From: Escherichia phage VpaE1_ev108
Sequence record: LR597658
Reading direction: 5' to 3' (one strand)
DNA length: 64,000 bases
The position numbers were made by a program, and so were the translations under genes. The notes beneath the pieces were generated by a model. The model saw only the letters and a program-made list of their open reading frames with translations. It searched no databases and was not told the origin of the DNA. Shown here piece by piece: positions 2,435 to 28,814 of the stretch. How positions within the stretch are numbered: position 1 is the stretch's first letter; every line of letters starts with the position of its first letter.

Positions 2435-3544
2435 ATGACTACTAAAACTAAAGCACAGATTGACGCAGAAATTTACAAACTGGTTAAAGAAGGTAAGCTG
2501 ACTAAAACAGCTATTGCACAGAAATTTAATACTTCAACCCGTTCAGTTGGTCGTGCTGTAGAGCGTCATGAAGCAACTTTAAAAGGGGATAAGAAGGCAA
2601 CTTCTACACCAGCTACGAAGACTTTGAAGCAAGTTGCTAAGACATTTAAAAAGAAAGCTGACAAACCAGTTGAAAAGGTCGTTAAAGATGCTGTACAGAA
2701 AGCTCCAGTAAATAAACTGCATGAAGCTATGCAGAAAGATGACAAAATTGAGTACATGATTACTGGCGACTCTGTAATTATGACTTATGGTTCAGAATCT
2801 GAAATTGTTGAGTCTACTCATCCGAACTATCAAGAGATTGTAGTTCATGTTGTGAAAGGTGAGTTCAAGAAAGCCTTTGAACTGATGAATATTCGTAAGT
2901 CTATCGAAAACTTCACTCAGGGTGCTATCACAATCAAAGGTGACAAGCTATTCTACGGTGCTGTTGAGATGCGTTCTACTCTGGTTGACCGTATTCTTCA
3001 CATGATGAAGACTGGAGATAAAGGCTTTGAACGCCTTGTGATGTTCTTCGAAAAACTGATGGAAAACCCATCTAAAGACTCTGTAGAACAACTTTGGGGC
3101 TTTGTATCTCACCTTGATGTTGAAATTGATGAAGAAGGCTACATCATTGGTTGGAAGAAAGTATCTACTCGTGAAGGTAAGCTGGTTGACTCCCACACCT
3201 ACAAAGTTCCTAACGATTTGGGTAACATTGTAGAGATGCCACGTTGGATGGTTGATAATAACCGTAACGTGACTTGCTCTCAAGGTCTTCATGTTGGTGC
3301 TTGGGATTATGTTCGTAGCTTCTCAGGTGATACAATCCTGAAAGTTCGTGTCCACCCACGAGATGTTGTATCTGTTCCAACTGATTACAATGATATGAAA
3401 ATGCGTTCATCACGTTATGAAGTTGCAGCTATCGTTGATAGCCAGCGTAATGTTCTGAAAGCATGGGATGGCAAGACTGAAGCTCTACATGTTATCGTTG
3501 GTACTGCTGGCGAACTTATTTCTCAGCGTAAACGTGAAATCTAA
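2435..3544 (+). CDS. rIIB-like protein (putative), N-terminal HTH-like segment
   Basis: 369 aa ORF immediately downstream of rIIA-like gene; SD-like AGAGAG upstream; assignment by position/size only. Confidence 0.4.
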   Translation: MTTKTKAQIDAEIYKLVKEGKLTKTAIAQKFNTSTRSVGRAVERHEATLKGDKKATSTPATKTLKQVAKTFKKKADKPVEKVVKDAVQKAPVNKLHEAMQKDDKIEYMITGDSVIMTYGSESEIVESTHPNYQEIVVHVVKGEFKKAFELMNIRKSIENFTQGAITIKGDKLFYGAVEMRSTLVDRILHMMKTGDKGFERLVMFFEKLMENPSKDSVEQLWGFVSHLDVEIDEEGYIIGWKKVSTREGKLVDSHTYKVPNDLGNIVEMPRWMVDNNRNVTCSQGLHVGAWDYVRSFSGDTILKVRVHPRDVVSVPTDYNDMKMRSSRYEVAAIVDSQRNVLKAWDGKTEALHVIVGTAGELISQRKREI

Positions 3545-3560
3545 TAAGTAATTCTCTTAA

Positions 3561-3587
3561 AAGGCTGCTTCGGCGGCCTTTTTTATT
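3561..3587 (+). terminator. intrinsic terminator
   Basis: GGCTGC-ttcg-GCGGCC hairpin followed by TTTTTTATTT. Confidence 0.6.
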
Positions 3588-3645
3588 TGTATTTTGTGCA
3601 GAGTGCTGTATAATTGTTGTCACGATAAACTAAACAGGAGAACCA

Positions 3646-5353: not shown

Positions 5354-5380
5354 AGGCTCCTTCGGGAGCCTTTTTCATTT
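5354..5380 (+). terminator. intrinsic terminator
   Basis: AGGCTCC-ttcg-GGAGCCT hairpin followed by TTTTTCATTTT. Confidence 0.65.
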
Positions 5381-5394
5381 TAGGAGATTGTTAA

Positions 5395-6798: not shown

Positions 6799-7000
6799 AA
6801 AGACACGAAAACTTATAAGGTCAGCAGTATTCATTGGACGAAATGAGGTCATCCCATTTACAGCAAATGATGTGATAGCTTACAGGAAGAACTTAGTATT
6901 CACTGACTGCTTACGTGGCTTCATCTCTGAACCATTGGAAGACTTTAAAAGTCGTTGTGGTAAAGGTATCATCATTCAAGAGGCAATTATTCATGGCTGA
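6773..7000 (+). CDS. hypothetical protein
   Basis: 75 aa ORF in co-directional block. Confidence 0.4.
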   Translation: MKVILARDKKTRKLIRSAVFIGRNEVIPFTANDVIAYRKNLVFTDCLRGFISEPLEDFKSRCGKGIIIQEAIIHG

Positions 7001-7193
7001 CTTCTGTAAAGACTGTTCTATCGAAATGTTCGGACGTGATACAGGTGACTTAAAAGGTCTTATCACTGAAGATGATTTTAAAGCTGGTTATGCAATGCCA
7101 GTAATCTGTGAAGGTTGTGGGTGCATCTGGGTAGACCATGAGGGGCAACGTGTAAAACCTTCAGAAGATAAAGAATCTTGGGAGAGATGCTAA
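6993..7193 (+). CDS. small Cys-rich zinc-ribbon-like protein
   Basis: in-frame ATG at 6993 overlapping upstream stop (ATGGCTGA); CKDC ... CEGCGC motifs. Confidence 0.4.
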   Translation: MADFCKDCSIEMFGRDTGDLKGLITEDDFKAGYAMPVICEGCGCIWVDHEGQRVKPSEDKESWERC

Positions 7194-7979
7194 ATGGGTA
7201 TTGTAAAAATCATCAATGGTGATATCTTTGCTGCATTTGATAAAGGTAAGTTTGACATCATTGGTCATGGTTGTAACTGCATGAACCTAATGGGCGCAGG
7301 TATCGCTGACAAGATTTCTAAACTTTACCCAAAAGCATATGAGACCGATACAGAAGTTTATCTCTATGCAGGTGGTATAGGTCACAAACCCTGTGAGAAT
7401 TTACTAGGTAATTTCTCTGTAGCACGCTTAAAACAAGGTCGTATAGCTAACCTTTACACTCAGCTTAAGACTGGTAAAGATGCCCGATACAGTGCTTTAG
7501 AGTCATCTTTGAAACAGCTTAACAGATACTGTGAAGTTAATCAGTTGAAGAAAGTTGGTTTACCTATGATTGGTGCAGGTATCGGTGGACTTGACCCTCA
7601 AGCCATCACAGTTATCATCAATCAGGTGATGAAGAGTGTAGATGTTTATCTGTATGTCTATGAAGGCGAGATGTACCACAAGTTACGCTCAGGTTGGAAG
7701 AACTACTGTGAACCAGAATACTTTGCAGGTGTAGCAGTGTTCACAGATAACGCAGTTACCCTCTTCAGACGAAGAAAAGGTAAGATACATCAAAGTAACC
7801 CTCCGGTTGAAAAGATGTCTCTAAGTAACGCTCTAGTTACCCACCTGTCAAAGAGCAATCACAGAATTGCTGTAACATTTGGTAGTGATGCAGAAGCTTA
7901 TATCTATGCAAGAACTGATGAGGATATCGAGGCAATCTTCTCTTCACCAGAGCTTACCTTCTTAGACGCAAAGAACTAA
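7194..7979 (+). CDS. Poa1p-like macro domain protein (ADP-ribose / ADP-ribose-1''-phosphate processing)
   Basis: INGDIF ... IIGHGCNCMNLMGAGIADKISKLYPKAYE closely matches the Poa1p-type macro signature (IHSCNC..GGGIA..YPKA); GGGAGAG SD. Confidence 0.7.
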   Translation: MGIVKIINGDIFAAFDKGKFDIIGHGCNCMNLMGAGIADKISKLYPKAYETDTEVYLYAGGIGHKPCENLLGNFSVARLKQGRIANLYTQLKTGKDARYSALESSLKQLNRYCEVNQLKKVGLPMIGAGIGGLDPQAITVIINQVMKSVDVYLYVYEGEMYHKLRSGWKNYCEPEYFAGVAVFTDNAVTLFRRRKGKIHQSNPPVEKMSLSNALVTHLSKSNHRIAVTFGSDAEAYIYARTDEDIEAIFSSPELTFLDAKN

Positions 7980-8048
7980 GAAACCTCGTAGTATATTCAC
8001 AATAGACTAAGCCTTTCTTATCTGGTAAATTTTTCAGGTAAGGAGGGC

Positions 8049-8231
8049 TTTTTCATTTCAGATTTGTGCAGGTAGAGTTCTGTAGAGAAATCTATAGAGA
8101 AAATTTTGAACTCCAAAGAGAAAATTCATTTTCAAACTGTGCAGGTAATCTCCAAAGAGCTTTTTCATTTTCAAAACGTGCAGACCCCGCTCAGGTCGGG
8201 CAAGAAAAATCATTTTAGAATTGTGCAGGTA
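8049..8231. repeat. four direct repeats of ~26 bp (TTCATTTTCAAANYGTGCAGGTA) in intergenic region
   Basis: copies at about 8050, 8121, 8161 and 8205; a related TTTTGTGCAG motif also lies upstream of the gene at 3646. Confidence 0.6.
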
Positions 8232-8246
8232 GGTTTTTATAGACAG

Positions 8247-8290
8247 CCAGCCCAACCCCTCTCCCCCTCTTACTCCCCCTCTCCCCAAAA
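8247..8290. repeat. polypyrimidine (C/T-rich) tract
   Basis: AGCCCAACCCCTCTCCCCCTCTTACTCCCCCTCTCCCC in an otherwise AT-rich genome. Confidence 0.6.
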
Positions 8291-8394
8291 GTCAAGAGAA
8301 AAATTTGTAGCGGATTGAAAAATAATTCTTGATTTGCGTTCTGTTTTGTGGTAGTCGTGCGCACCCGTTTCATTACAGTTTTGCCAAAAATATT

Positions 8395-8438
8395 TTTAAA
8401 ATTTTTATTGACTCTTTGAACGTGGTTATCTAATATTT
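8395..8438 (+). promoter_or_regulatory. sigma70-like promoter
   Basis: TTGACT - 17 nt - TAATAT preceded by AT-rich TTTTTAAAATTTTTA. Confidence 0.5.
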
Positions 8439-8440
8439 AC

Positions 8441-8499
8441 ATCAACGGGGAGGGAATGACCTTCCCCACTAAATAAAATCCTAAACTGGAGATTCAAAA
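8441..8499 (+). repeat. type-A hairpin-leader cassette (copy 1 of 7)
   Basis: CAACGGGGAGGGAATGACCTTCCCC hairpin + ACTAAATAAA(A/G)TCCT(T)AAACT(A)GGAGATTC(A/T)AAAATG leader. Confidence 0.7.
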
Positions 8500-8688
8500 A
8501 TGGCATCAAGAAAAATTAAAGTTGGCGATGAGGTTAACATTAAGCACGAATACTCTTACAAAATGCTAACTATACGCTCTTATAAGGTTTATCAGGTGGA
8601 AGCTATCCACAAAGATAATACTTTTTCCTTAAAAGGGTATAGCGAACGTTTCCCTGCTGAACTCTTTGAGAAATGGAGCGCGAAATAA
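8500..8688 (+). CDS. hypothetical small protein
   Basis: 62 aa ORF directly behind type-A cassette (GGAGA SD). Confidence 0.55.
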   Translation: MASRKIKVGDEVNIKHEYSYKMLTIRSYKVYQVEAIHKDNTFSLKGYSERFPAELFEKWSAK

Positions 8689-8894
8689 TGCTTTACAGTC
8701 GTGAATTGATGGTTACAACTAACGTTAACACAAAGGCAAAACGTTTTTACATGAAAATCTGTGGCGTATGGTCCAGAATATCAGAAGCCGACTATTGCAA
8801 CTATGTAGAAACAGCTATTAATTCTAATTGCTACCTTACAAGAAACACTAAGAAATTTACAAGGCAGGCAGCGATTTACTACTACGACAAATAA
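8688..8894 (+). CDS. hypothetical small protein
   Basis: ATG overlapping upstream stop (TAATG); 68 aa. Confidence 0.45.
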   Translation: MLYSRELMVTTNVNTKAKRFYMKICGVWSRISEADYCNYVETAINSNCYLTRNTKKFTRQAAIYYYDK

Positions 8895-8980
8895 AGTACT
8901 TTACAGGGGGCTTAAAAGCTGATATCTTAAGCCCCAGATAAAGAGCTTTACCACTAAATCCTAAATTGGAGAACTTAAAA
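8892..8980 (+). repeat. type-B hairpin-leader cassette (copy 1 of 6)
   Basis: TAAAGTACTTTACA-GGGGCTTA..TAAGCCCC hairpin-AGATAAAGAGCTTTACCACTAAATCCTAAATTGGAGA..AAAAATG. Confidence 0.7.
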
Positions 8981-9361
8981 ATGGCATACCGTGCACCTAA
9001 ATTCATCAACAAAGACAACTTTCGCAACGCACTGGAGAAGTCACTTGATGAAAATTTTAAAGGTAATGTTATTGTTGTTCACTCGTTTAATTTTAAGTAT
9101 GATGTAAACGGGAATAGAATCAACCATTACACGGCAACCATGTTAGATGGTACACTTTCAAGTGAAAAAGCCATTTTACATGCACTTGCAGGACGTGGTA
9201 AAAACCTGATAAGATGCGATAAGAGACGTTATCAGGGTGGCGCATATGGTTATGATGATGCTGTTTATCATCTTGAAAATATGGGCTATTCAGTGGAAAA
9301 AGCTGGAGTGTCTCAAATAATCGGCAGTGACGGCTATGTGACAATTTTCAAAATTAACTGA
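8981..9361 (+). CDS. hypothetical protein
   Basis: ATG at 8981 behind type-B cassette (ORF-track start 8966 is a TTG inside the repeat). Confidence 0.55.
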   Translation: MAYRAPKFINKDNFRNALEKSLDENFKGNVIVVHSFNFKYDVNGNRINHYTATMLDGTLSSEKAILHALAGRGKNLIRCDKRRYQGGAYGYDDAVYHLENMGYSVEKAGVSQIIGSDGYVTIFKIN

Positions 9362-9449
9362 TAAAGTACTTTACAAGGGGCTTATAGTTCGATAAAGTAA
9401 GCCCCAGATAAAGAGCTTTACCACTAAATCCTAAATTGGAGATTCAAAA
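9362..9449 (+). repeat. type-B hairpin-leader cassette (copy 2)
   Basis: near-identical to copies at 10786 and 11915. Confidence 0.7.
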
Positions 9450-9707
9450 ATGGCTATTATCAAAAACGTTGTAATTCCTGCAAAAACTCGTGATGACGCT
9501 CGCATCATGGCGAAAAAGTTAGGCGGGAAAGTGGTTGACAATGGAAAACAATCCGCTGTAAGGTGGAACGTGAAGTCGGATAAGCAATTAACCTTAAAAC
9601 GTAATTCAAACAACCTTTTTAAAGGTGTAAAATCACTCGGTAAAGTGAACGTGTTTACCAAAAAAGGCTATAAAATGCACTTATCATTAACTGGCAATTT
9701 AATCTGA
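9450..9707 (+). CDS. hypothetical basic small protein
   Basis: 85 aa ORF behind type-B cassette. Confidence 0.55.
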   Translation: MAIIKNVVIPAKTRDDARIMAKKLGGKVVDNGKQSAVRWNVKSDKQLTLKRNSNNLFKGVKSLGKVNVFTKKGYKMHLSLTGNLI

Positions 9708-9802
9708 TAAAGTACTTTACAGGGGGCTTAAAAGTTGGTATCTTAAGCCCCAGATAAAGAGCTTTACCACTAAATCAAGTCCTTAAACTAGGAGACTCAA
9801 AA
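9707..9802 (+). repeat. type-B hairpin-leader cassette (copy 3, variant loop)
   Basis: GGGGGCTTAAAAGTTGGTATCTTAAGCCCC hairpin + conserved leader. Confidence 0.7.
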
Positions 9803-10099
9803 ATGAAATTATCAAATAAAGTTAGGGAAAATCTAAGCAAGTTACTCAACAAAATTGATTTTATCGAGACCTCAAGAAATACTCATGAGGTTATGGAATG
9901 GTTACACGGCAAAATAAAAGGCCGTCGTGTAGTGATTTGCTTATGGAATAGTTGCAGGGAGTATAAAAAGCCTGTATTGCAAATTAATGTTTATGATGAT
10001 ACTTGTAAAAGTCCTGTTAAGTCTGAAAGTGATTTACTAGAGTCTTATGAGATAACTTTAAATGGCAAAGTATCACGTAAAGAGGAAGCACCATGTTAA
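9803..10099 (+). CDS. hypothetical protein
   Basis: 98 aa ORF behind type-B cassette. Confidence 0.55.
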   Translation: MKLSNKVRENLSKLLNKIDFIETSRNTHEVMEWLHGKIKGRRVVICLWNSCREYKKPVLQINVYDDTCKSPVKSESDLLESYEITLNGKVSRKEEAPC

Positions 10100-10425
10100 T
10101 GATGGGTATCACTGCAATCATTGCCATTATAGCACTGTACAAGGCTTATAGCGCATATAATTTGGCAAGTAAGGCAATCACGCAACAGGTTAATAATAGC
10201 CTTGTAATGAGCTTTCTGGAGCGTTTAAGTGATGAACAAATAAAACGGTTAGAAATGAGCTTCAGATTTCAATCAAAAACTTATCAAATCAGCGACATTT
10301 TCAAAGATAATTTTCAGCTTGTCGATGATTATAACTCTCTGATAAATGCTTTAAATATCAGTGACTTAAAAGACTATTACACTGTAATTGTCCAAGAACT
10401 GAACAAACGAAAAAATTTCTCTTGA
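10093..10425 (+). CDS. hypothetical membrane protein
   Basis: N-terminal hydrophobic helix MLMMGITAIIAIIALY; overlaps upstream stop. Confidence 0.5.
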   Translation: MLMMGITAIIAIIALYKAYSAYNLASKAITQQVNNSLVMSFLERLSDEQIKRLEMSFRFQSKTYQISDIFKDNFQLVDDYNSLINALNISDLKDYYTVIVQELNKRKNFS

Positions 10426-10450
10426 TTTTAGTTTTAAAAACAAGTAAATT

Positions 10451-10515
10451 ACTAATCAACGGGGAGGGAATGACCTTCCCCACTAAGTAAAGTCCTTAAA
10501 CTAGGAGATTCTAAA
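10451..10515 (+). repeat. type-A hairpin-leader cassette (copy 2)
   Basis: ACTAATCAACGGGGAGGGAATGACCTTCCCC + leader. Confidence 0.7.
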
Positions 10516-10788
10516 ATGTACACTACTAACAACGGTCGCACCTTAAACGTAACCCTACGCCACTATGTAAACGGTGTAATGCACTTCGAGGATTTACAAG
10601 CTGAACAGCACATTTTGGATTGGCAACTTGCAGGATTCCAAAAAACTGCTACCGGATACGGGAAAAAGATTCCAACTAGCTGGAAAGTATACTACGAAGG
10701 CCGTTTGCGTAGAATTTATCAAGATGTATGCGGCAATAGCGCATCAAGTTACATCATAGTAAAAGGCAAAAAGCTGCATTTAGCATAA
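10516..10788 (+). CDS. hypothetical protein
   Basis: 90 aa ORF behind type-A cassette. Confidence 0.55.
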   Translation: MYTTNNGRTLNVTLRHYVNGVMHFEDLQAEQHILDWQLAGFQKTATGYGKKIPTSWKVYYEGRLRRIYQDVCGNSASSYIIVKGKKLHLA

Positions 10789-10873
10789 AGTACTTTACAA
10801 GGGGCTTATAGTTCGATAAAGTAAGCCCCAGATAAAGAGCTTTACCACTAAATCCTAAATTGGAGATTCAAAA
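10786..10873 (+). repeat. type-B hairpin-leader cassette (copy 4)
   Basis: repeat begins at the upstream stop codon. Confidence 0.7.
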
Positions 10874-11278
10874 ATGGCTATTAATAATCGTGAGTTATCT
10901 ATCTTAAAAGCACGTTTGACCGTCAACCGGATTAATGTTATCACATCATCAGCACCAGATGAAACATTGCAAAACATTATTGGGAAGATTCAAAGTATTA
11001 TCTTAGACGTTGAAAGCGTAAAAAACTCATTGGCTGACGTTGCAGCCGGTATCACGCTAGACGGTGCACAACATGAAATGGCCGACATGTTAGGCAAATC
11101 AAAGGTAATGAATAAAGAGCTTGATTTAAAGATGTTCCGATTTGCTGTTAAAGTGTGGCTATCCGTCGAGTATGACGCTAATTTTGCAATCGCTGATTTC
11201 TTTGCCACTTGGTTACAACGTAACTTAACAAATCATGATTTCCGTGATGTCTGTGATGCAATCTACGCAGAACTTTAA
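10874..11278 (+). CDS. hypothetical protein
   Basis: 134 aa ORF behind type-B cassette. Confidence 0.55.
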   Translation: MAINNRELSILKARLTVNRINVITSSAPDETLQNIIGKIQSIILDVESVKNSLADVAAGITLDGAQHEMADMLGKSKVMNKELDLKMFRFAVKVWLSVEYDANFAIADFFATWLQRNLTNHDFRDVCDAIYAEL

Positions 11279-11316
11279 AAAGATGTTGACACTGATTTTT
11301 AGATAGATTAAATTAC
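11275..11316 (+). promoter_or_regulatory. sigma70-like promoter
   Basis: AAAAAGATG-TTGACA - 17 nt - TAAATT. Confidence 0.5.
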
Positions 11317-11378
11317 TCATCAACGGGGAGGCAATAACCTCCCTACTAAATAAAGTCCTTAAACTAGGAGATTCTAAA
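11314..11378 (+). repeat. type-A hairpin-leader cassette (copy 3, compensatory stem variant)
   Basis: GGGGAGGCAATAACCTCCCTAC: stem changed on both strands relative to other copies. Confidence 0.7.
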
Positions 11379-11576
11379 ATGGCTATTATTAACGGCTTAA
11401 CCATTGAAACAACACACATCAAAGATATCAAAGTTGGTGATGTAGTCCTTTCCCACGGCGTAGAAAAAACTGTCACTGCAAAGGATATCAAAGAGGATTC
11501 TTTCATGGGTAGAACTCTCTTCGGTGATTCTTATTGCTTAGGTTATCTTGCAGTTTTAAAAGTTGTCAAAAATTAA
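11379..11576 (+). CDS. hypothetical small protein
   Basis: 65 aa ORF behind type-A cassette. Confidence 0.5.
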   Translation: MAIINGLTIETTHIKDIKVGDVVLSHGVEKTVTAKDIKEDSFMGRTLFGDSYCLGYLAVLKVVKN

Positions 11577-11577
11577 G

Positions 11578-11669
11578 TAATAAAGTACTTTACAAGGGGC
11601 TTAAAAAGTTGGTATCTTAAGCCCCAGATAAAGAGCTTTACGCAGTCCTTAAACTAGGAGATTAAAAAA
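11578..11669 (+). repeat. type-B hairpin-leader cassette (copy 5)
   Basis: GGGGCTTAAAAAGTTGGTATCTTAAGCCCC + leader variant. Confidence 0.7.
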
Positions 11670-11915
11670 ATGATGAACTATTTCAATGTCCCTGATACCT
11701 GCCGACTATTGACACAAGAAGAAAACTTGGGTAAACCTTTTCTTTACCACATGCCAGACAACACCCCAAAAACTTATAGTTACAATGTCAACCGTTTTAC
11801 CGCATACGCTGCAAAGAACGGTTATAAGTTGGTCACTCAAAAAGTAATGCTGGTTACAACCGCTGACGAGATTCCTACAGTTGCAGTTAAACTAATTTTC
11901 TCAAAAAAAAGTTAA
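11670..11915 (+). CDS. hypothetical protein
   Basis: 81 aa ORF behind type-B cassette. Confidence 0.55.
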   Translation: MMNYFNVPDTCRLLTQEENLGKPFLYHMPDNTPKTYSYNVNRFTAYAAKNGYKLVTQKVMLVTTADEIPTVAVKLIFSKKS

Positions 11916-12004
11916 ATAAAGTACTTTACAAGGGGCTTATAGTTCGATAAAGTAAGCCCCAGATAAAGAGCTTTACCACTAAATCCTAAACTGGAGATTC
12001 AAAA
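11915..12004 (+). repeat. type-B hairpin-leader cassette (copy 6)
   Basis: near-identical to copies at 9362 and 10786. Confidence 0.7.
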
Positions 12005-12568
12005 ATGAAATGCTATCACGGAACTACCCTCAAAAACTTTGTAAACCTGCTGAATGGTGGCGACAAGCCGGAAGGAATCTGGAACTGCTCATACATGGAT
12101 GATTGTTTCTACGTTTACCCAATGAACAAGATTATCAAAACGGAATGTCTGGAAGATGAGGAAGATTCTTACATTCGTGAACGCTGCATTCAAAACGCTT
12201 TAGAATCTGGGCTTATTACGGCAGCTTTCCAAATGGAAACGCAGGACGTAATTGTCATTGAGATGGATATCCCAGAGGAAGAGCTAGAGGATGATTATTC
12301 TTGTGACAACATGAGCGATATCGCCAGCTTTACCGGACACTTTGATAAAAATTGGATTATTGGCCTTCACTCGACGAAATTTAGTGCGATGTATGCACCT
12401 TTCTTTGTACCAGATGCAACTAACCGCAATTTAGGCTATGTTGACGATGATTTGTTAAGTATGGCGAAAATTGTACAGAATAGCGGTGATAGTTCCGTGT
12501 TTTGTGACTTGCTGGATAAAATCACGGCAAACATCACAGAGCGCAATTTAAAAGACTTTTTAGGTTAA
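12005..12568 (+). CDS. hypothetical acidic protein
   Basis: 187 aa ORF behind type-B cassette. Confidence 0.55.
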   Translation: MKCYHGTTLKNFVNLLNGGDKPEGIWNCSYMDDCFYVYPMNKIIKTECLEDEEDSYIRERCIQNALESGLITAAFQMETQDVIVIEMDIPEEELEDDYSCDNMSDIASFTGHFDKNWIIGLHSTKFSAMYAPFFVPDATNRNLGYVDDDLLSMAKIVQNSGDSSVFCDLLDKITANITERNLKDFLG

Positions 12569-12631
12569 TCAGTACAAAGACACCAACTTCCAACTTAAGG
12601 CCCATACAGGGCCATTTAAAGGGCTTAAATC

Positions 12632-12865
12632 ATGCTTACAACCATTTATCTTATCCTTTCTATTTGTAATGGTCATTCATGTGATTTTAAAGGGCTTGAG
12701 GAGTTTACAGGGAGTAAAGAAAATGCTATTCAAGTTTGCCAGATAGCAAGACAAGACTATCCCGCCAGTGATGATATTCAATGCTACTTTAAGACAGAAG
12801 ATGAAGACGGCGTCTATTTTGACAGTGTCGATGGTCAATATGAAATTATCATTGAAAAAGACTAG
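12632..12865 (+). CDS. hypothetical small protein
   Basis: 77 aa ORF; preceded by a different hairpin (GGCCCATACAGGGCC). Confidence 0.45.
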   Translation: MLTTIYLILSICNGHSCDFKGLEEFTGSKENAIQVCQIARQDYPASDDIQCYFKTEDEDGVYFDSVDGQYEIIIEKD

Positions 12866-12890
12866 ACAAGCCTGATAAAAGTCTGTAAAT

Positions 12891-12956
12891 TGTCAATCAA
12901 CGGGGAGGGAATGACCTTCCCCACTAAATAAAGTCCTTAAACTAGGAGATTCTAAA
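12891..12956 (+). repeat. type-A hairpin-leader cassette (copy 4)
   Basis: TGTCAATCAACGGGGAGGGAATGACCTTCCCC + leader. Confidence 0.7.
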
Positions 12957-13298
12957 ATGGCTTATGTAACTGTAATTACCGATAAAGAAGATTCATCTTG
13001 GTCAACTCAAGTAAGTGATAAGATGTCACCTATGCAGTGCCTAAAATACTTTGAGCAGTGGAACAAAGGCGAGGATGTCAGCCCCTTTCAAGTGATGCAA
13101 ATTATCCATACAGATAACGAAGGGAACAAAACGACACTTAATAGCGAGTATTACGCAAATCGTTTTGAGAGTCGAGTTGAAACGATGAAGGGGCTGCGTG
13201 AGGCCGGATATGGGCACATTGCCGCCTTGTTATGGGATAGCCTACTAAAAAATCAGCGTATCAGCTATGTAAAACCTGAAAAAATATTCATCAGTTAA
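12957..13298 (+). CDS. hypothetical protein
   Basis: 113 aa ORF behind type-A cassette. Confidence 0.55.
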   Translation: MAYVTVITDKEDSSWSTQVSDKMSPMQCLKYFEQWNKGEDVSPFQVMQIIHTDNEGNKTTLNSEYYANRFESRVETMKGLREAGYGHIAALLWDSLLKNQRISYVKPEKIFIS

Positions 13299-13319
13299 TC
13301 AATAACTTACAAAAAACTT

Positions 13320-13360
13320 TTAAAAAGATGTTGACAATCCCTCTTGACATTGGTAACTTT
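13320..13360 (+). promoter_or_regulatory. sigma70-like promoter (tandem TTGACA boxes)
   Basis: TTAAAAAGATG-TTGACA - 17 nt - TAACTT. Confidence 0.45.
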
Positions 13361-13454
13361 GTTCGAGGGGGGTTTATCTAAAAGGGATTAACTTAAAAGA
13401 TTCTTTATAGATAGACTTAAAAAAATTGCTTGCAATCAGATATCAAAACAAGTA

Positions 13455-13522
13455 AATTACTCATCAACGGGGAGGCAATAACCTCCCTACTAAGTAAAGT
13501 CCTTAAACTAGGAGATTCTAAA
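13455..13522 (+). repeat. type-A hairpin-leader cassette (copy 5)
   Basis: same compensatory stem variant as copy 3. Confidence 0.7.
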
Positions 13523-14053
13523 ATGAACAAGTTCAAAGCTATCAACTATATTCGTTCAAATAATGTAATGTCTAAGCCCGTTAAAGATACCTATGAATTT
13601 CGTTGTAATGGGGTACACTTTGCAACCATTACCAAATCAGAAAACGGGGCTTATTACGTTCATCGTCGTAATGTTGCAACCGTTGTAGTCTCTCACTTTA
13701 TGCAAGCTGTCGCGGAATTATTACCGTTATTCTTAGAGATTTATCTAGATGAGTGTAAAAACGTTCACAATCACGTTAAAAACCTTTTAAATAGTTATAA
13801 AATGGCTTATGAACGTTCTATCAAGTCCTTAAACAAGTTTTACAACGCACCTAAAAATACTGTATCAATAGCCTATGCTGCAAATGGTGAGATGGTAAAC
13901 TTATCCAATGTGGAAGAAATCAAGCTGCATGATTTACGCCCTAGCGGTTACTCTAAGACTCTCGGTGAAGGTTTAACGTTCAATATCAAGAACTTAGAGA
14001 AAACTTTAAAAGATATTGAAAAAGATATTGACGAGACAATCAAAAATCTGTAA
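13523..14053 (+). CDS. hypothetical protein
   Basis: ATG at 13523 behind cassette; ORF-track start 13430 would translate through the repeat. Confidence 0.55.
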   Translation: MNKFKAINYIRSNNVMSKPVKDTYEFRCNGVHFATITKSENGAYYVHRRNVATVVVSHFMQAVAELLPLFLEIYLDECKNVHNHVKNLLNSYKMAYERSIKSLNKFYNAPKNTVSIAYAANGEMVNLSNVEEIKLHDLRPSGYSKTLGEGLTFNIKNLEKTLKDIEKDIDETIKNL

Positions 14054-14114
14054 ATTGTCAATCAACGGGGGATGACCTCCCCCACTAAATAAAATCCTAA
14101 ACTGGAGATTCAAA
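14051..14114 (+). repeat. type-A hairpin-leader cassette (copy 6, variant stem GGGGGA/TCCCCC)
   Basis: CAACGGGGGATGACCTCCCCCAC + leader. Confidence 0.7.
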
Positions 14115-14378
14115 ATGGAACACGTCGAACTGACCACACTTTTACAAATTGCAACCGACAAAGAGGATGTAGCACTATTCCATCGTATCGAGAGTGATTT
14201 GTTCAATGGTGAAATCATTAAAGAGTCTTACGAAGTTGTCGGATTCAAAGACGGTAAAGCGTTCGGATTCTTTGACCTCGACAAAGGCAAAGCGGTTACA
14301 AAATATGATGTTTTATCTTGTGAGATTCTGACAAAATACAACGAAAAAAGACTTGCAACATACGCCAACATGCAGTAA
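14115..14378 (+). CDS. hypothetical protein
   Basis: 87 aa ORF behind type-A cassette. Confidence 0.55.
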   Translation: MEHVELTTLLQIATDKEDVALFHRIESDLFNGEIIKESYEVVGFKDGKAFGFFDLDKGKAVTKYDVLSCEILTKYNEKRLATYANMQ

Positions 14379-14458
14379 ATTACTAATCAACGGGGAGGGA
14401 ATGACCTTCCCCACTAAATAAAGTCCTTAAACTACTTCCTAAACTGGAGATTCTAAAA
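14376..14458 (+). repeat. type-A hairpin-leader cassette (copy 7, leader partly duplicated)
   Basis: leader contains CCTTAAACTACTTCCTAAACTGGAGA duplication. Confidence 0.7.
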
Positions 14459-14707
14459 ATGGCAACTATCCGCGCTACTGTTAACGAGTTCGGTTTTTCC
14501 TCTCTGGATGTTAAATTTGACATTGCAGGCACTGATAACACCTTTGAAATGGTGAAAAGTCTTATCAGTCAGACCATCAAAGATTATAATCCTTCGGATG
14601 AGTTCTGGGAGGAAACAAAACAAGAAGTTCTCAAGGATGGTTATACTTATCACTATTGGGGAGAAAAAATCGTCTCCCTGTACTACAACAAACAAGATTA
14701 TAACTAA
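14459..14707 (+). CDS. hypothetical protein
   Basis: 82 aa ORF behind type-A cassette. Confidence 0.55.
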   Translation: MATIRATVNEFGFSSLDVKFDIAGTDNTFEMVKSLISQTIKDYNPSDEFWEETKQEVLKDGYTYHYWGEKIVSLYYNKQDYN

Positions 14708-14770: not shown

Positions 14771-16341
14771 ACGTCTATCCAATCCTTATACAATCCCTTT
14801 CCAGAATCTTATCAGACCTTAAAAGCAATAACTCTATAGTCTACTCTATAACCTCTTATCAAATCAACTTAAATAAAAGCCAATAACCCCCAGAAAGGGG
14901 ATGGCCCATTTAAACGCTCTATAAAGCTCTATAACAGCCTTATCAACCTAACTTAAGGGATTGCATTAACCAACCTTAAAAAGCTCTTTACAGGGCTTTA
15001 TAGAGACTTAAAAGAATCTTATAAGGGTGTAAGCTTTATTATCTCATTAGTATTCTTGTGAATATCTAAACAACCCCTTGATAGTCACTAAAAAGTATGT
15101 TATAGGGGCTTTAAAGTTACTTTGAAGTAGCTTAAAAGTTACGTAAAAGAGGCTATAAAGTTACGTAAATGCTAGCCCCCTTAACATTTTCTTAACAATT
15201 TCTTAACAAACCCTACATAGTTATGCTTGTTAGCAACTTGTTAGCCCCTTGTTAAATCTCTGTTAATACCACGTAAAAGCTTTGTAAGAGTCTTTGACAT
15301 AGCCTTTAAAGCTTCTGTAAAGCCCTATAAAGAGCTTTCTTCATAGTTGGGGTGTAATTACTAGGAAGAGCCTTAAAAGAGCTTACAAGGAGCTATAGAG
15401 AGCTTTTAAGAGGGCTATTTAAAGAGTCACTAAGAGGGAAAGGGAACGATAAGAAAGAGATAGTGACCATGTTAATAGCTTGTTAAAAAGATTAAACACT
15501 TGTTAGAGACTTGTTAATTATCTTAACAAAATAACTCTTAACATTTAACTACTTAGCTCTTGTTAGTCATCTGTTAAGATTCTGTAAAGACTATTCAGCA
15601 CTTGTTAGAAAACTGTTACAACCTTGTTAGACTTGTTAAGAATCTGTTAAGACCTTTGAAGAGTTGTTAAGAAGATGTGAGAACTGTTAAGAGATTGTTA
15701 AGGATATTTTAAAATTTTGCAAAGGGGATGTTACAGGGATGTTAAGGGCTACCAAGCAGATATACATCTTCTACAGATATTTTTCAGTTCCTTCAAAGAC
15801 CCTAAAAAATGACTTGATAGTCCTATTTTATAAAAATTTTAAGATTCTGAATAATTACCTATACAGCCTTTTAAAAATACAGGTAATAACAGGCTTATAA
15901 GATACCTTGTTAGTACCGTGTTAGACCTTGTGAGATAAGGTCTGTAAAGATATTCCTGTTAAGTTTGTTAAAACAGTCTATATAGAGGCTTAGTAGCACC
16001 TAGTGAACACCTATAGAGAGTAACATAGCTGACATAGAGATTAAGAGGTGTATAGGAGCTTCTAAGAGGATGTAGAGAGATGGTTAAGGTGATTGTATAG
16101 GTTGTTTAGAAGGCTTGTTAGAGGGCTATTTAGAAGGGCTATACAGAGGGCTATTAAGACCACTAGATAGATACTAAGATACTATATAGTACTATATAAC
16201 TATATAGAGAGTAAGATTAAGAAGGTTGTTAAGAAGGATAGATATTTTATTCACATATGATGGTGACCCAGAGGTTGGGACAACCGATAAAATTTTATAA
16301 AAATTAAAAAGCCCCCGATTAAGGAGGCTCTTAAGATATTT
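14771..16341. promoter_or_regulatory. 1.6 kb ORF-free, motif-dense region between convergent gene blocks (candidate origin / regulatory hub)
   Basis: no ORF of 60 aa or more on either strand; more than 20 copies of YTGTTAAG/CTTGTTAG between about 15180 and 16240; tandem ~20 bp units of GCT(A/T)T(A/T)AAAG.. and palindromic CTTWWAAG 8-mers. Confidence 0.5.
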
Positions 16342-26011: not shown

Positions 26012-26088
26012 CTCTGTTTAGCTCAGCTTGGTAGAGCGTTCCGTTTGGGGCGGTAAGGCCGGAGGTTCAAGTCCTCCAACAGAGACCA
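26012..26088 (+). tRNA. tRNA-Pro (anticodon UGG)
   Basis: acceptor CTCTGTT/AACAGAG, T-arm GGAGG-TTCAAGT-CCTCC, loop ttTGGgg, encoded CCA. Confidence 0.6.
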
Positions 26089-26095
26089 AATTAAT

Positions 26096-26173
26096 GTTCC
26101 AGTAGACAAAATGGTAAAGTCACCACTCTTTCAAAGTGGATATCTGAGGGTTCAAATCCCTTCTGGAACGCCA
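26096..26173 (+). tRNA. tRNA-Glu (anticodon UUC)
   Basis: acceptor GTTCCAG/CTGGAAC, T-loop TTCAAAT, anticodon stem CCACT/AGTGG, loop ctTTCaa, CCA. Confidence 0.65.
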
Positions 26174-26178
26174 GTTTT

Positions 26179-26256
26179 GACAGAAGACCAATTACAGCAA
26201 ACTTAATCTTATTCATCTGAAGGTAAATCGGACAAAGAAGAGATTTGGTCTGGTCA
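26179..26256 (+). repeat. E1: conserved bulged-stem element (CAGAAGACCAA ... TTGGTCTGG)
   Basis: 5' block CAGAAGACCAATTACAGCAA and 3' block TTGGTCTGG form a 7 bp helix enclosing ~52 nt. Confidence 0.5.
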
Positions 26257-26264
26257 TTAAGAAT

Positions 26265-26341
26265 TGCGGGTATAGAGAAAGGGCGTCTCACATGTCTCAT
26301 TAGCATGGTATCGGCAGGTTCGACTCCTGCACCCGCCTCCA
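26265..26341 (+). tRNA. tRNA with CAU anticodon (Met, fMet or Ile-lysidine type)
   Basis: T-arm GCAGG-TTCGACT-CCTGC, acceptor with mismatch at pair 1-72, loop ctCATta, CCA. Confidence 0.5.
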
Positions 26342-26345
26342 AATT

Positions 26346-26415
26346 TACAGAAGACCGTTTACAGCAATATTTATTAAATTTTTAGCGGAAAAAATTGAAA
26401 GATACGGTCTGGTAA
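26346..26415 (+). repeat. E2: conserved bulged-stem element (CAGAAGACCGT ... ACGGTCTGG)
   Basis: same flanks as E1 with compensatory AA/TT to GT/AC change in the helix. Confidence 0.5.
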
Positions 26416-26425
26416 TACTAAACAT

Positions 26426-26502
26426 GGTTAGGAAGCACATAAGGTATGTGCGGTCGCCTGTTAAGCGAATGGCACAGGGTTCGAATCCCTGACTAACCGC
26501 CA
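26426..26502 (+). tRNA. tRNA-Asn (anticodon GUU)
   Basis: T-arm CAGGG-TTCGAAT-CCCTG, loop ctGTTaa, CCA. Confidence 0.65.
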
Positions 26503-26571
26503 AATTTAGGAGAGAAGCGATTGCTCACCGATTTGTAAGGTGCAAGTCCTTAGCCTGAATAGAAATTAAAT

Positions 26572-26659
26572 GTGTCGTTATCCCGTAGATGGTAGCGGTG
26601 GGGACTGTAAATCCCTTGTCATTGAGACTCGGTAGGTTCGACTCCTACACGGCACACCA
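26572..26659 (+). tRNA. tRNA-Tyr (anticodon GUA), long variable arm
   Basis: 88 nt; acceptor GTGTCGT/ACGGCAC, anticodon stem GGGGA/TCCCT, loop ctGTAaa, T-loop TTCGACT, CCA. Confidence 0.65.
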
Positions 26660-26664
26660 ATAAA

Positions 26665-26742
26665 GGTTATGTAGTTTAATTTGGTTAAAATACTCCCCTG
26701 TCACGGGAGATGATGAGGGTTCAAATCCCTTCGTAACCGCCA
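26665..26742 (+). tRNA. tRNA-Asp (anticodon GUC)
   Basis: anticodon stem CTCCC/GGGAG, loop ctGTCac, T-loop TTCAAAT, CCA. Confidence 0.7.
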
Positions 26743-26801
26743 ATTTTGAGAGGGCTATTTAGCCCCTCCCTTAAAGGGTTCTTACGAGTATTCTTTAAAG
26801 G

Positions 26802-26880
26802 AGCAGAAGACCAAATTCAGCAAGTTACTTAAAATTTCAAGCCAATTTAATTTTGAAAAATTTAAAACTTGGTCTGGCTC
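26802..26880 (+). repeat. E3: conserved bulged-stem element (CAGAAGACCAA ... TTGGTCTGG)
   Basis: same conserved flanks, ~54 nt AT-rich insert. Confidence 0.5.
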
Positions 26881-26888
26881 AACAAATT

Positions 26889-27024
26889 TACAGAAGACCG
26901 TTTACAGCAAAACTTAACAATCTATTTCTCCGGTAAAGAAAAGGCGAAGGTTCGATTCCTTCACTCGGCAGATGTCGAGTTGGTGTAATGGTAGTACTTA
27001 AGATGATAAACAACGGTCTGGTAA
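26889..27024 (+). ncRNA. E4: candidate structured RNA, bulged stem enclosing a tRNA-like T-arm (Y-RNA-like?)
   Basis: CAGAAGACCGT ... ACGGTCTGG helix; interior has perfect T-arm GAAGG-TTCGATT-CCTTC, a second hairpin ACTCG..CGAGT and D-loop-like AGTTGGTGTAATGGTAG, but no acceptor stem. Confidence 0.35.
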
Positions 27025-27170
27025 TTATCTTTGTAGATAAGTTATTAAGCTTACCTGTGAGTATGCGACCACAAAGGGTGAAAGGGTAAATTCTAGATTT
27101 AAACCCAAAAAGGCACATCGCTACAGACCTTAAGCAAGTCTGGGTAGCTTATCTACAAAGATAATTTAAT

Positions 27171-27246
27171 GGAAGTGTAGCAGAATGGTGATGCGGCAGA
27201 CTTTTAATCTGACAGGCGATGGGTTCGAATCCCTCCACTTCTACCA
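27171..27246 (+). tRNA. tRNA-Lys (anticodon UUU)
   Basis: acceptor GGAAGTG/CACTTCT, loop ctTTTaa, T-loop TTCGAAT, CCA. Confidence 0.6.
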
Positions 27247-27250
27247 ATAT

Positions 27251-27327
27251 GGTTCAGTCGCAGATAAGGTAATGCAAGGGTCTCATAAGCCCTATGAATG
27301 TGGGTTCGATTCCCATCTGAACCTCCA
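27251..27327 (+). tRNA. tRNA-Met (anticodon CAU; GGG/CCC anticodon stem)
   Basis: acceptor GGTTCAG/CTGAACC, loop ctCATaa, T-arm GTGGG-TTCGATT-CCCAT, CCA. Confidence 0.65.
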
Positions 27328-27328
27328 A

Positions 27329-27404
27329 GCTGGTATAGTTAAGAAGGTTATAACACTCCCCTGATAAGGGAACATCGGTGGTTCGATTCCACCTACCAGT
27401 ACCA
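27329..27404 (+). tRNA. tRNA-Ile (anticodon GAU)
   Basis: loop ctGATaa, T-arm GGTGG-TTCGATT-CCACC, CCA. Confidence 0.65.
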
Positions 27405-27411
27405 ATTTCAA

Positions 27412-27450
27412 TAAAGTTGTTGACATTGAGATGTGACTACTTTATAGTAA
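27412..27450 (+). promoter_or_regulatory. sigma70-like promoter internal to tRNA island
   Basis: AAAGTTG-TTGACA - 17 nt - TATAGT. Confidence 0.55.
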
Positions 27451-27651
27451 CCTTAGTTTTCGTTGCGTAGCGTCTATTTTGCAAATTTAAAATAAATGCA
27501 AACGACAATGTTTTTCTGGCAGTAGCTTGATAGGCTAAACACCAGTGAGGTCTTCCAATCCCTCATCAAAGAATTTGGCGTACTCGCCCACGGTATGATT
27601 AATAAGGTGGGCATCTTTAAGGGCTTTCTAAGAGAGTCTTTAAAGATTAAT

Positions 27652-27728
27652 GCACCCTTAGTTCAACTGGACAGAGCAAATGACTTCTAATCATTGAGTT
27701 ACAGGTTCGAATCCTGTAGGGTGTGCCA
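27652..27728 (+). tRNA. tRNA-Arg (anticodon UCU)
   Basis: acceptor GCACCCT/AGGGTGT, anticodon stem AATGA/TCATT, loop ctTCTaa, T-arm ACAGG-TTCGAAT-CCTGT, CCA. Confidence 0.7.
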
Positions 27729-27870
27729 ATTAGTTAGCAGATTACTTAGACGACCTAAGCGGGTCTTCCTGTAGGGAGGTGGTCTGTATCTCATGTTTTC
27801 CAGAACATGTAAATAATCTGAGAAGGGGCTTTACAGTGTTGAGATAATACGGTAAGCTTCGAATTATAGT

Positions 27871-27953
27871 ATGGGACGATGTTAAGACTCTAAGGCATGA
27901 GCAACGGCTTCCAACACCGTTTCAAAGGGGTTCAACTCCTCCGTCCCATGCCA
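27871..27953 (+). tRNA. tRNA-Trp-like (anticodon CCA), atypical 83 nt with enlarged D region
   Basis: perfect acceptor ATGGGAC/GTCCCAT, T-loop TTCAACT, loop ttCCAac, CCA; D-arm cannot be folded canonically. Confidence 0.4.
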
Positions 27954-27966
27954 AAATCTTATTAGG

Positions 27967-28054
27967 GGTAGGTAGCGGCTAATGGTAGCCAAACTGTCTT
28001 GAAAACAGTTGCCACTGTAGAGATACGGTGAGGGTTCGACTCCTTTACTTACCG
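27967..28054 (+). tRNA. tRNA-Ser (anticodon UGA), long variable arm, no encoded CCA
   Basis: 88 nt; anticodon stem ACTGT/ACAGT, loop ctTGAaa, 3-bp D stem, T-loop TTCGACT. Confidence 0.6.
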
Positions 28055-28210
28055 CCTAATAAGATTTAAAGCCAAGCTTCATTCGGATGTTGCTTTGGTA
28101 TCCCGCGTGTATTGTTGTACACACTGATAAAGCACCTAGTAGGTGTCACGGAGAAGAGATAATATCAAGCTCTCCAAAGGTTCTAGTCACCGGATTAAAC
28201 AAGACTATGC

Positions 28211-28233
28211 AAAGACCTTTTTAGGTCTTTTTA
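28211..28233 (+). terminator. hairpin plus T-run inside tRNA island
   Basis: AAGACC-ttttta-GGTCTT followed by TTTTAG; stem uses the same AGACC/GGTCT motif as the E elements. Confidence 0.35.
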
Positions 28234-28311
28234 GAGGGCTTCTAAGGTTATTACAGCTTGTTGTGGAACCTTGTTGCTTAGGTTCTTAGAAGTTCTCTAA
28301 AAAGATTTAAT

Positions 28312-28389
28312 GGGAGATTGACGGTAATTGGTAAACCTATCTCGCTTAGAACGAGATGTTTGAGGGTTCGAATCCCTTGTCTCCTACCA
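28312..28389 (+). tRNA. tRNA with UAG anticodon (Leu by anticodon; class-I length)
   Basis: acceptor GGGAGAT/GTCTCCT, anticodon stem TCTCG/CGAGA, loop ctTAGaa, T-arm GAGGG-TTCGAAT-CCCTT, CCA; short variable arm. Confidence 0.5.
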
Positions 28390-28396
28390 AATTAAT

Positions 28397-28472
28397 GCAG
28401 GTGTAGCAAAATGGTTATGCGGCTGACTCTTAATCAGTAAGACGATGGGTTCAATTCCCTCCACCTGTACCA
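28397..28472 (+). tRNA. tRNA-Lys (anticodon CUU)
   Basis: acceptor GCAGGTG/CACCTGT, loop ctCTTaa, T-loop TTCAATT, CCA. Confidence 0.55.
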
Positions 28473-28477
28473 AAAAT

Positions 28478-28553: not shown

Positions 28554-28559
28554 ATTAGT

Positions 28560-28634: not shown

Positions 28635-28641
28635 AATTAAT

Positions 28642-28717: not shown

Positions 28718-28814
28718 ATTTAGAGGTCAAGTGAAAGACCGCTTTGAGTCAACTGAAGACCGTAACAAATTCCACGGAGTTGAGTTAGCGGCACAACTCC
28801 AGACCTCTTCTCAC

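Follow-up and report, generated by a model that had tools for sequence, protein, structure and literature searches.

What role do four copies of a short repeat play in a gene-free stretch of a Felix O1-like phage genome? We address this question for the window, that is, the whole 64,000-nucleotide stretch of Escherichia phage VpaE1_ev108 (record LR597658) that was analyzed. The window is the genome of a Felixounavirus (Felix O1-like; subfamily Ounavirinae). A megablast search with positions 7000-10000 matched 252 phage records, nearly all from Felixounavirus, with LF82P1, ekra, and XTG1 as the closest matches (94-97% identity). The Felix O1 record, which was opened upstream of rIIA (PMC3185647), is collinear with the window. 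The repeats are housed in an untranslated gap of 520 bp (7980-8499), with the macro-domain gene that closes the rIIA-rIIB-lysin-kinase-spanin operon upstream and a long row of small open reading frames (ORFs) downstream. Within the gap, the array follows the terminator of this operon and precedes the sigma-70 promoter that comes first in the terminal block of small early genes. The flanking features are as follows:

7194-7979: gene of the macro-domain protein, 261 amino acids (Pfam Macro; 'putative phosphatase' in other records)
8009..8050, + strand: intrinsic terminator of the rIIA-to-macro-domain operon, a 17-pair stem followed by a T-run (terminator scan)
8500..8688, + strand: first small ORF of the terminal early-gene block, 62 amino acids without a Pfam domain (ORF list; PHROG 15633)

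The T-tail of the operon terminator continues into the first repeat. The same arrangement is found in the Erwinia phage phiEa21-4, and the annotation of XTG1 places a Rho-independent terminator at the corresponding site.

Each repeat is a two-part motif of 22 bases, W5-TCATTTY-N5-YGTGCA(GGTA), in which an A/T run is followed by TCATTTY, five free bases, and YGTGCA. The pattern TCATTTYNRANNYGTGCAG has four matches in 64 kb against 0.02 expected, and none of 100 shuffles reaches four, confirming the four copies that had been noticed in an earlier reading of this DNA (hereafter the original prediction). The copies and their companion elements are:

8053-8074 (8048..8074 with the A/T run), + strand: copy 1, TTTTT TCATTTC AGATT TGTGCA GGTA, matrix score 44.1
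8126-8147 (8121..8147 with the A/T run), + strand: copy 2, AAAAT TCATTTT CAAAC TGTGCA GGTA, matrix score 41.3
8165-8186 (8160..8186 with the A/T run), + strand: copy 3, CTTTT TCATTTT CAAAA CGTGCA GACC, matrix score 37.0
8210-8231 (8205..8231 with the A/T run), + strand: copy 4, AAAAA TCATTTT AGAAT TGTGCA GGTA, matrix score 37.0
8111..8120, + strand: exact copy of the element CTCCAAAGAG, ahead of copy 2
8150..8159, + strand: exact copy of the element CTCCAAAGAG, ahead of copy 3

All four copies run in the same direction. Their starts are 73, 39, and 45 bp apart, with gaps of 51, 17, and 23 bp between them, and the deviant 3' end of copy 3 (GACC) is preserved in relatives. A matrix built from 20 copies recognizes only these four sites in the window (scores of 37-44; the runner-up reaches 12.5). 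A scan with this matrix found no array copy in positions 60000-86155 of Felix O1 (AF320576), the part of the genome beyond the window. The original prediction was right about the repeats, the C-rich tract that follows them, and the promoter, but several details of its description do not hold. It had called the repeats tandem, with a 26-bp unit. There is no 26-bp period: Tandem Repeats Finder gives no array of the unit and locally reports only a 12-bp doublet (8079-8102), and the gaps are unequal, so that a tandem or CRISPR-like array is rejected. Its own repeat consensus fits only three of the copies within three mismatches, and the CTCCAAAGAG companion, exact before copies 2 and 3, does not accompany each copy as had been claimed.

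The array is present in five lineages: Felixounavirus, Mooglevirus, Suspvirus, Kolesnikvirus (Erwinia phages), and the divergent relative L053. Conservation in related genomes had been proposed as a check, and the array passes it, with three to five copies per genome that always lie directly after the macro-domain gene. A common order (macro gene, terminator, four same-direction copies, C-rich stretch, about 180-200 bp, sigma-70 promoter) is seen in Felixounavirus, in Moogle (Mooglevirus) and SUSP1 (Suspvirus), and in phiEa21-4 and Coenus (Kolesnikvirus). The distances between starts, 73/39/45 in the window, are 75/41/45 in Moogle and SUSP1 and 37/37/39 in the Erwinia phages. Within a lineage they are nearly invariant (73-77/39-41/45 or 37/37/39), and helical phase varies between lineages. 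A few genomes have three copies, among them VpaE1, L017, and L038, from which copy 2 is absent. The genome of L053 (88 kb) carries five copies right behind a macro gene whose product has 148 amino acids. The macro segments align with about 46-47% identity; upstream, the gene order matches that of the window, with protein identities of about 40-60%.

Searches of sequence collections gave the same distribution. By BLAST, positions 8125-8227 match Erwinia phages at 73% identity, copy 4 being the window copy closest to the Erwinia phage version, and the array spacer matches 288 phage records. All Ounavirinae records that we inspected have the array. Scanning IMG/VR with the pattern yielded 28 additional loci, and more loci of Ounavirinae type came from a scan for two copies. 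Across the IMG/VR, metagenome, and genome scans, the array occurred only in Ounavirinae-type contigs, the other matches being unrelated coding or satellite repeats.

Conservation is also selective within the locus. Averaged over 26 distinct Felix-, Moogle-, and Susp-type sequences, column identity is 96.8% in the half-sites TCATTT and GTGCA, compared with 85.7% in the seven bases between the half-sites and 86.1% in the spacers between copies. The same measure gives 67.6% for the C-rich tract (8246-8287) and 95.5% for an A+T-rich block (8287-8336). Half-sites that are better conserved than their middles and spacers make a footprint typical of a protein-binding site. Furthermore, the 3' end of the site is shared by all copies of a lineage, reading GTGCAGGTA in the enterobacterial phages versus GTGCATAG in the Erwinia phages, which fits co-evolution with a phage protein.

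We therefore infer that the repeats are bound by protein, and we infer likewise the nature of the binder and the role in replication that are developed below. The four repeats are probably a cis-acting array of protein-binding sites on DNA, to judge from the two-part conserved motif, the single orientation, the near-fixed spacing, the uniqueness of the locus, the shared 3' variant, and the lack of a coding or RNA signal. The putative binder is more likely to be encoded by the phage than by the host. The binding-site reading of the original prediction is thus supported by unique, same-direction, two-part sites whose half-sites are conserved in five Ounavirinae lineages; the regulatory role that it attached to them, in early transcription, is weakened, as set out below.

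Downstream of the array, the gap contains four further features:

8246..8287, + strand: C-rich pyrimidine tract, 42 nt (C 27, T 8, A 5, G 2)
8287..8336, no strand assigned: conserved A+T-rich block, AAAAGTCAAGAGAAAAATTTGTAGCGGATTGAAAAATAATTCTTGA, the best-conserved part of the spacer
8380-8419, + strand: easily melted A+T-rich stretch with a stability of -44.0 kcal/mol for the 40-bp duplex, at the window's 99th percentile
8408-8436, + strand: first sigma-70 promoter of the small early-gene block, TTGACT-17-TAATAT (promoter scan)

The tract is the window's most C-rich 45-mer. On the - strand, positions 8256-8286 read GGGG AGA GGGGG AGTAAGA GGGGG AGA GGGG, which by sequence alone is a G-quadruplex motif (four runs of at least three G, with loops of 1-7 nt) and the sole one on either strand of the 64 kb (0.06 expected). 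Among the 26 distinct relatives, however, two tract alleles of equal length occur: a C-rich type A in 14 and a type B, unrelated in sequence and not C-rich, in 11. Bas63 carries type B, and the G-quadruplex motif is not kept in type B genomes. Given this replacement by an unrelated sequence of equal length in 11 of 26 distinct relatives, the tract is, as far as these alignments go, a variable cassette and not an obligatory partner of the repeats. It resembles rut sites in being C-rich, G-poor, and unstructured on the transcribed strand, and G-quadruplex or i-motif elements in having at least four G-runs on the other strand, but its replacement in the type B relatives sets it apart from both. 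The original prediction had a pyrimidine tract follow the copies, as it does in the window; in the type B relatives it is missing, and it is no fixed part of the arrangement. The promoter that was said to come next is present as well, but 120 bp past the tract rather than directly after it.

The conspicuous C-rich tract is less conserved than the 50-bp block beside it. This block has imperfect inverted arms (TCAAGAGAA / TTCTTGA) and includes a degenerate fifth half-copy, GAAAAATAATTCTTGATTTG, at 8317-8336, with 80% identity to copy 4. The 40-mer of lowest stability (8380-8419), which like the block is a candidate for the A+T-rich unwinding region that adjoins iterons at an origin, doubles as the upstream element of the promoter, the -35 and -10 of which are conserved in relatives.

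What might a protein do at these sites? We tentatively favor an iteron-like array for one sequence-specific DNA-binding protein, an origin-type site at which phage replication would be initiated; this is a possibility somewhat short of probable. The putative protein would assemble on the four sites right behind the operon terminator into a larger protein-DNA complex, which might then cooperate with the conserved A+T-rich block and with the easily melted, strongly transcribed promoter 150-180 bp away. The array would thereby initiate phage DNA replication, and it could be dispensable in the laboratory because other initiation routes would be available. Both T4 and T7 tolerate the loss of individual origins. 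The origin reading is the best single fit to a unique locus in an untranslated gap of this size, with a conserved A+T-rich block, an easily melted stretch, and a strong promoter. According to the record annotation, the DNA polymerase, primase/helicase, and exonuclease resemble those of the T7/T3 type. Helicases of this type need a pre-opened site to load, and we count the resemblance in favor of an origin for this reason.

Iteron arrays are a familiar class that includes the lambda origin with its four O-protein sites, P1 oriR, the iterons of F, R6K, and pSC101, T4 oriE, and the origins of the lactococcal phages c2 and sk1. Classical iterons are spaced by about 22 bp, and individual origins of lytic phages are often dispensable. 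The array shares with iteron origins several same-direction copies of about 20 bp, uniqueness, a place in or near early genes, and a position beside an A+T-rich stretch and a promoter. Iterons come as at least three same-orientation copies of 17-25 bp that are unique in the replicon, and this is what the window together with AF320576 60000-86155 contains. In contrast, the close, regular spacing of iterons (about two helical turns, in conserved phase) is not found here, where starts are 37-45 (and 73) bp apart. Initiators are usually encoded next to their iterons, but no initiator gene is recognizable near the array: a Pfam-level search of the ten small proteins encoded downstream and of the upstream proteins found no DNA-binding Pfam domain (the flanking small proteins have no Pfam domain at all), and the sole recognizable helix-turn-helix regulator of the phage is encoded 50 kb from the array. 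A further difference is the G-quadruplex-prone C tract, which adjoins the array in many genomes but not in all.

The wide, lineage-variable spacing of the sites (37-45 bp) and the lack of a recognizable initiator encoded nearby weaken the case for an origin, as do neutral insertions in the array of Bas63. In the PhageMaP preprint, barcode insertions in Bas63 'gene 96' have fitness values of 0.24 to 0.93 in three data sheets and are neutral or positive; they resemble those of neighboring non-essential genes and are given without exact insertion points (10.1101/2024.10.10.617714). We take 'gene 96' to be bas63_0096 (64142-64297), directly behind gene 95 ('putative phosphatase'). This ORF lies wholly within the array, its ends falling inside copy 1 and at the start of copy 4. 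The insertions therefore indicate that the phage can grow in laboratory E. coli when the array is interrupted. Bas63 'gene 97', which covers the tract and the conserved block, has no row in the PhageMaP data (10.1101/2024.10.10.617714). The origin reading is further weakened by a second repeat-rich, C-rich intergenic region (58447-58823), which is at least an equally good candidate and lies inside the replication and nucleotide-metabolism module. GC skew follows the direction of transcription and gives no origin signal, and no data mapping replication initiation to the array were found in the literature searched.

The array is a previously undescribed, subfamily-wide member of the class of iteron-like site arrays. 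We found no description of it in the Felix O1, UAB_Phi87, Pr103Blw, and Danish coliphage papers or in the other literature searched. Few phages of E. coli and Salmonella are isolated as often, or used as much for therapy and typing, as those of the Felix O1 type. Temporal control of transcription in Felix O1 is an open question according to its genome paper (PMC3185647). If the array is an origin or a boundary element, it offers a direct handle on the replication origin or on this temporal control, and its locus is a place to avoid or to exploit in phage engineering.

The main rival to an origin is a transcriptional boundary, which we consider unlikely but worth weighing. A protein on the four sites would act as a roadblock or silencer against read-through, or would use looping to silence the first early promoter. 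In combination with the intrinsic terminator, and with a Rho loading site in the genomes that have the C tract, the array would shield the immediate-early block from the middle-time operon. The position suits this role, with the array starting in the T-tail of the operon terminator, between units of different timing. By reverse transcription PCR, Felix O1 genes 13, 16, and 20-22 peak at 5 min and genes 1, 3, 4, 6, 10, and 14 at 25 min (PMC3185647). The + strand RNA of the array is predicted to be unstructured (z +1.4), and dispensability in the laboratory is compatible with an insulator. Rho loading sites are C-rich and G-poor, and so are the 78 nt past copy 4 in the window (C/G of 2.9). The ratio is 1.6-2.9 in Moogle, SUSP1, SUSP2, the Erwinia phage sequences, and two related contigs; in type B Felixounaviruses, however, it is 0.6-0.7, so that the Rho-site part is not general. 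Moreover, the other C-rich tract, near 58.7 kb, likewise has its cytosines on the + strand even though the genes there lie on the - strand, which argues for an asymmetry at the level of DNA rather than of the transcript.

Promoter control from these sites meets further difficulties. Like the operator arrays of phage regulators, the array consists of multiple copies of a short motif in non-coding DNA upstream of a promoter. Unlike them, its sites are asymmetric, lack dyad symmetry, run in one direction, and precede the -35 by 177-355 bp, the end of the last copy being at 8231 and the first base of the -35 at 8408. No other early promoter has such a site: none of the promoter-like sites ahead of the small ORFs at 8900-14600 carries an array copy. 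On these grounds the array does not qualify as a general operator motif. A general phage promoter motif is rejected as well, since the motif occurs at the array locus only and no -10-like hexamer is seen at a fixed distance from the copies. The proposed regulator of early transcription suffers from the same facts. Only the first early promoter has the array ahead of it, with 177 bp between the last site and the -35; the further promoter-like sites ahead of small early ORFs have no copy, and neither the window nor AF320576 60000-86155 holds another. It is thus unlikely that the array is a regulator site of early transcription in general.

Position also suggests a role in DNA entry. The array is not a genome terminus or packaging site: the true physical left end corresponds to window position 15175. 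The short terminal repeat annotated in Pr103Blw is placed at exactly this point, and several other records, including ones ordered by terminus analysis, begin here. Direct terminal repeats in this group are short, with published lengths of 581 bp and, from nuclease treatment and run-off sequencing, 608 bp (PMC8303462; PMC4837284). The array lies about 6.9-7.1 kb inside the right terminal repeat and about 7.5 kb (about 8%) from the right end. Two records break near the array, of which KhF1 was merely opened at the terminator and Andreotti ends in an inverted-copy assembly artifact.

In a checkpoint like that of T5, the right-hand ~7.5 kb would enter first, and entry would pause at the repeats until early proteins have been made. 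The array would be the right-end landmark that holds back the genome until these proteins release it, through its four sites, which resemble DnaA boxes in the Erwinia phages, aided in many genomes by the quadruplex-prone tract. We consider this improbable. In its favor, the array lies at the inner edge of the right-end block of small early genes, which are transcribed toward that end. The T5 stop signal is similar: large, untranslated, and rich in repeats, it lies at 7.9% of the genome on the inner edge of the small very early genes and contains DnaA boxes (10.1101/866236). DnaA-box-like words occur in some lineages of the array only. With one mismatch allowed, TTWTNCACA is matched by all four copies in each of the Erwinia phages phiEa21-4 and Coenus and by one of five in L053, but by none in Moogle and none of the four in the window. 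In T5, however, the signal is part of a terminal repeat of about 10 kb; the repeat here is about 0.6 kb, and the array is outside it. Insertions in the Bas63 array are neutral, the argument for a checkpoint is one of position, and we found no report of two-step entry in this phage group in the literature searched. If true, two-step injection would extend to a second phage group, one that is unrelated and very common, and the terminal ~7.5 kb with its small host-takeover genes would enter and be expressed first.

The same words raise the question of host DnaA itself, for which the repeats might be a cluster of boxes that fires a DnaA-dependent origin or titrates DnaA. In our reading of the consensus, the invariant TGTGCA equals positions 4-9 of a DnaA box on the other strand. 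Besides the copies of phiEa21-4 and Coenus, one copy in L053 reads cGTGGATAg. However, a DnaA box leaves the equally conserved TCATTTY half unexplained. To our knowledge, DnaA specificity is common to all these hosts, so that drift of a DnaA site would not be expected in the phages that infect E. coli or Salmonella. As the copies of the window and Moogle fail the match, host DnaA is not a general explanation, and we think it very improbable.

There is a similarly slight chance that the array is a DNA decoy or anti-defense element that titrates a host or prophage protein. A precedent is aba, a DNA-based self-immunity element with required direct repeats that acts against BstA (PMC8585504). The array is non-essential in laboratory strains yet kept throughout the Ounavirinae records inspected, and it is a DNA-level element adjoining anti-host early genes. 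Against this, no partner is known, and 'gene 96' is unchanged in the data sheet for the TerY-P defense (10.1101/2024.10.10.617714). Bacterial genomes scanned for a similar array had none: among 185,579 species representatives and over the scanned spacing range, no Enterobacterales genome held a two-copy array, which excludes an array of host-type sites. By eye, nothing convincing was seen for CRP, Fur, IHF, Fis, sigma-54, sigma-E, OmpR, or TorR consensus sites. The macro-domain protein was rejected as the binder: conservation between the Felix-type and the Erwinia phages does not extend to its C-terminal half, and in L053 the protein is short.

Current annotations mask the array under spurious small ORFs, such as Felix O1 ORF31-34, bas63_0096 and bas63_0097, and Moogle gene 115. 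We give almost no credence to the view that the repeats are repeated peptide units of small proteins encoded here. Open frames of 51 and 52 amino acids do exist on the - strand, and spacings of 39 and 45 bp are multiples of three, but spacings of 37, 41, and 73 bp break the frame. The ORFs fuse, split, or vanish among genomes, no overlapping ORF shows a codon periodicity of substitutions (variable sites per codon position are 28/30/31 and 25/27/30, without a third-position excess), the best-conserved stretch is invariant in DNA and not in protein, and no Shine-Dalgarno sequence is seen ahead of the ATG at 8373. A protein-coding region is therefore rejected, and so is a structured RNA: no Rfam family reaches threshold, and both strands fold more weakly than shuffles (z +0.8 to +1.9).

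Equally remote is a functionless relic that arose when the terminator tail was duplicated repeatedly. Both copy 1 and copy 3 open with CTTTTTCATTTT, the T-tail of the local terminator and also of the terminator at 5354-5381, but the array is retained with near-fixed spacing within lineages and conserved half-sites across lineages whose neighboring proteins are at 40-60% identity, and neutral repeats would have decayed over such divergence; the pattern of conservation largely refutes this reading.

One resemblance was noted outside the gap. The motif TTTTGTGCAG, reported as a relative of the repeats at another promoter, does exist near position 3592, just past a terminator T-tail and in the -35/spacer region upstream of a TATAAT at 3609. 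It is the runner-up that scores 12.5 against the 37-44 of the true copies, and its weak resemblance to the array motif is probably due to chance.

The most conserved part of the intergenic spacer is an A+T-rich 50-bp block (8287-8336) with imperfect inverted arms, which lies between the fourth copy of the repeat array and the early promoter and is 95.5% conserved, above both the repeat spacers and the promoter itself. By contrast, the sequence directly after copy 4 (8232-8287) exists as two unrelated alleles of equal length, one in our window and the other in Bas63, L014 and others. The type A allele is C-rich, whereas type B reads GGTGGGTGCAGGTGGGGATGTCGCC... and carries one further GTGCAGGT half-site.

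A hairpin and two further terminators lie outside the array:

8446-8466, GC-rich hairpin GGGGAGGGAATGACCTTCCCC, in the first small ORF's leader, just 3' of the early promoter
5354-5381, further intrinsic terminator of the operon that runs from rIIA to the macro-domain gene
3559-3592, further intrinsic terminator of the same operon

VpaE1 has the leader hairpin too, but it is missing from Felix O1, Bas63, Moogle and SUSP1; the annotations of XTG1 and KhF1 list it as a terminator on the minus strand. Both operon terminators have the tail CTTTTT(C/T)ATTT in common with the start of repeat copies 1 and 3.

Downstream, the small-ORF block (8900-14600) consists of promoter/leader modules that occur again and again (TTTACA-17-TAAAGT or TATCTT, followed by a leader sequence in common). 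They match the repeats of 57 and 39 bp that have been reported in Felix O1. Because the modules recur across the block, parts of the query 7980-8500 match 3-10 places per genome. As a separate observation, 24 tRNA genes are clustered on the + strand at 26012-30983.

Repeats and related words also occur away from the array, in the following regions:

58447-58823, second repeat-rich intergenic region, between minus-strand genes
15175-15755 (wider region 14800-16250), physical left end and direct terminal repeat of ~0.6 kb
15180-15254 and 15572-15702, TRF arrays in the terminal-repeat region

The first of these is a candidate alternative origin. It contains the second most C-rich 45-mer in the window, on the + strand; the 8.25-kb tract is C-rich on that strand too, although the genes around this second region point the opposite way. 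Its repeats are ACCTAACCA-type, CCACACCAGACC... (twice) and AAAGACC(C)TTTT...AAAGACCTTTTAAAAAGG (twice), and an HTH_3 (XRE-type) regulator is encoded close by (57557-57886). The terminal-repeat region is dense in TTAACA and TGTTAAG words in both orientations, phased at roughly 11 bp; L053, a divergent 88-kb relative, has a run of ~11 phased TTAACA words directly 3' of its five-copy array.

Small ORFs annotated across the array in several public records (8058-8373, minus strand, in our window; ORF31-34 in Felix O1; bas63_0096/0097; CPT_Moogle115) are most likely not genes. In the 83,391-bp record of phage Andreotti (MN850610.1, record positions 3267-3289), the sequence around copy 3 is repeated in inverted form at the end of the record, with the break at the expected start of the C tract; the G/C-rich tract probably caused an assembly artefact here. 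Felix O1-like DNA also occurs in the 147-kb record of 'Staphylococcus phage SA1' (GU169904.1, 127707-130278; 92% identity across this region), and one or two Campylobacter-named records likewise match the array region, which suggests mixed or mislabelled assemblies.
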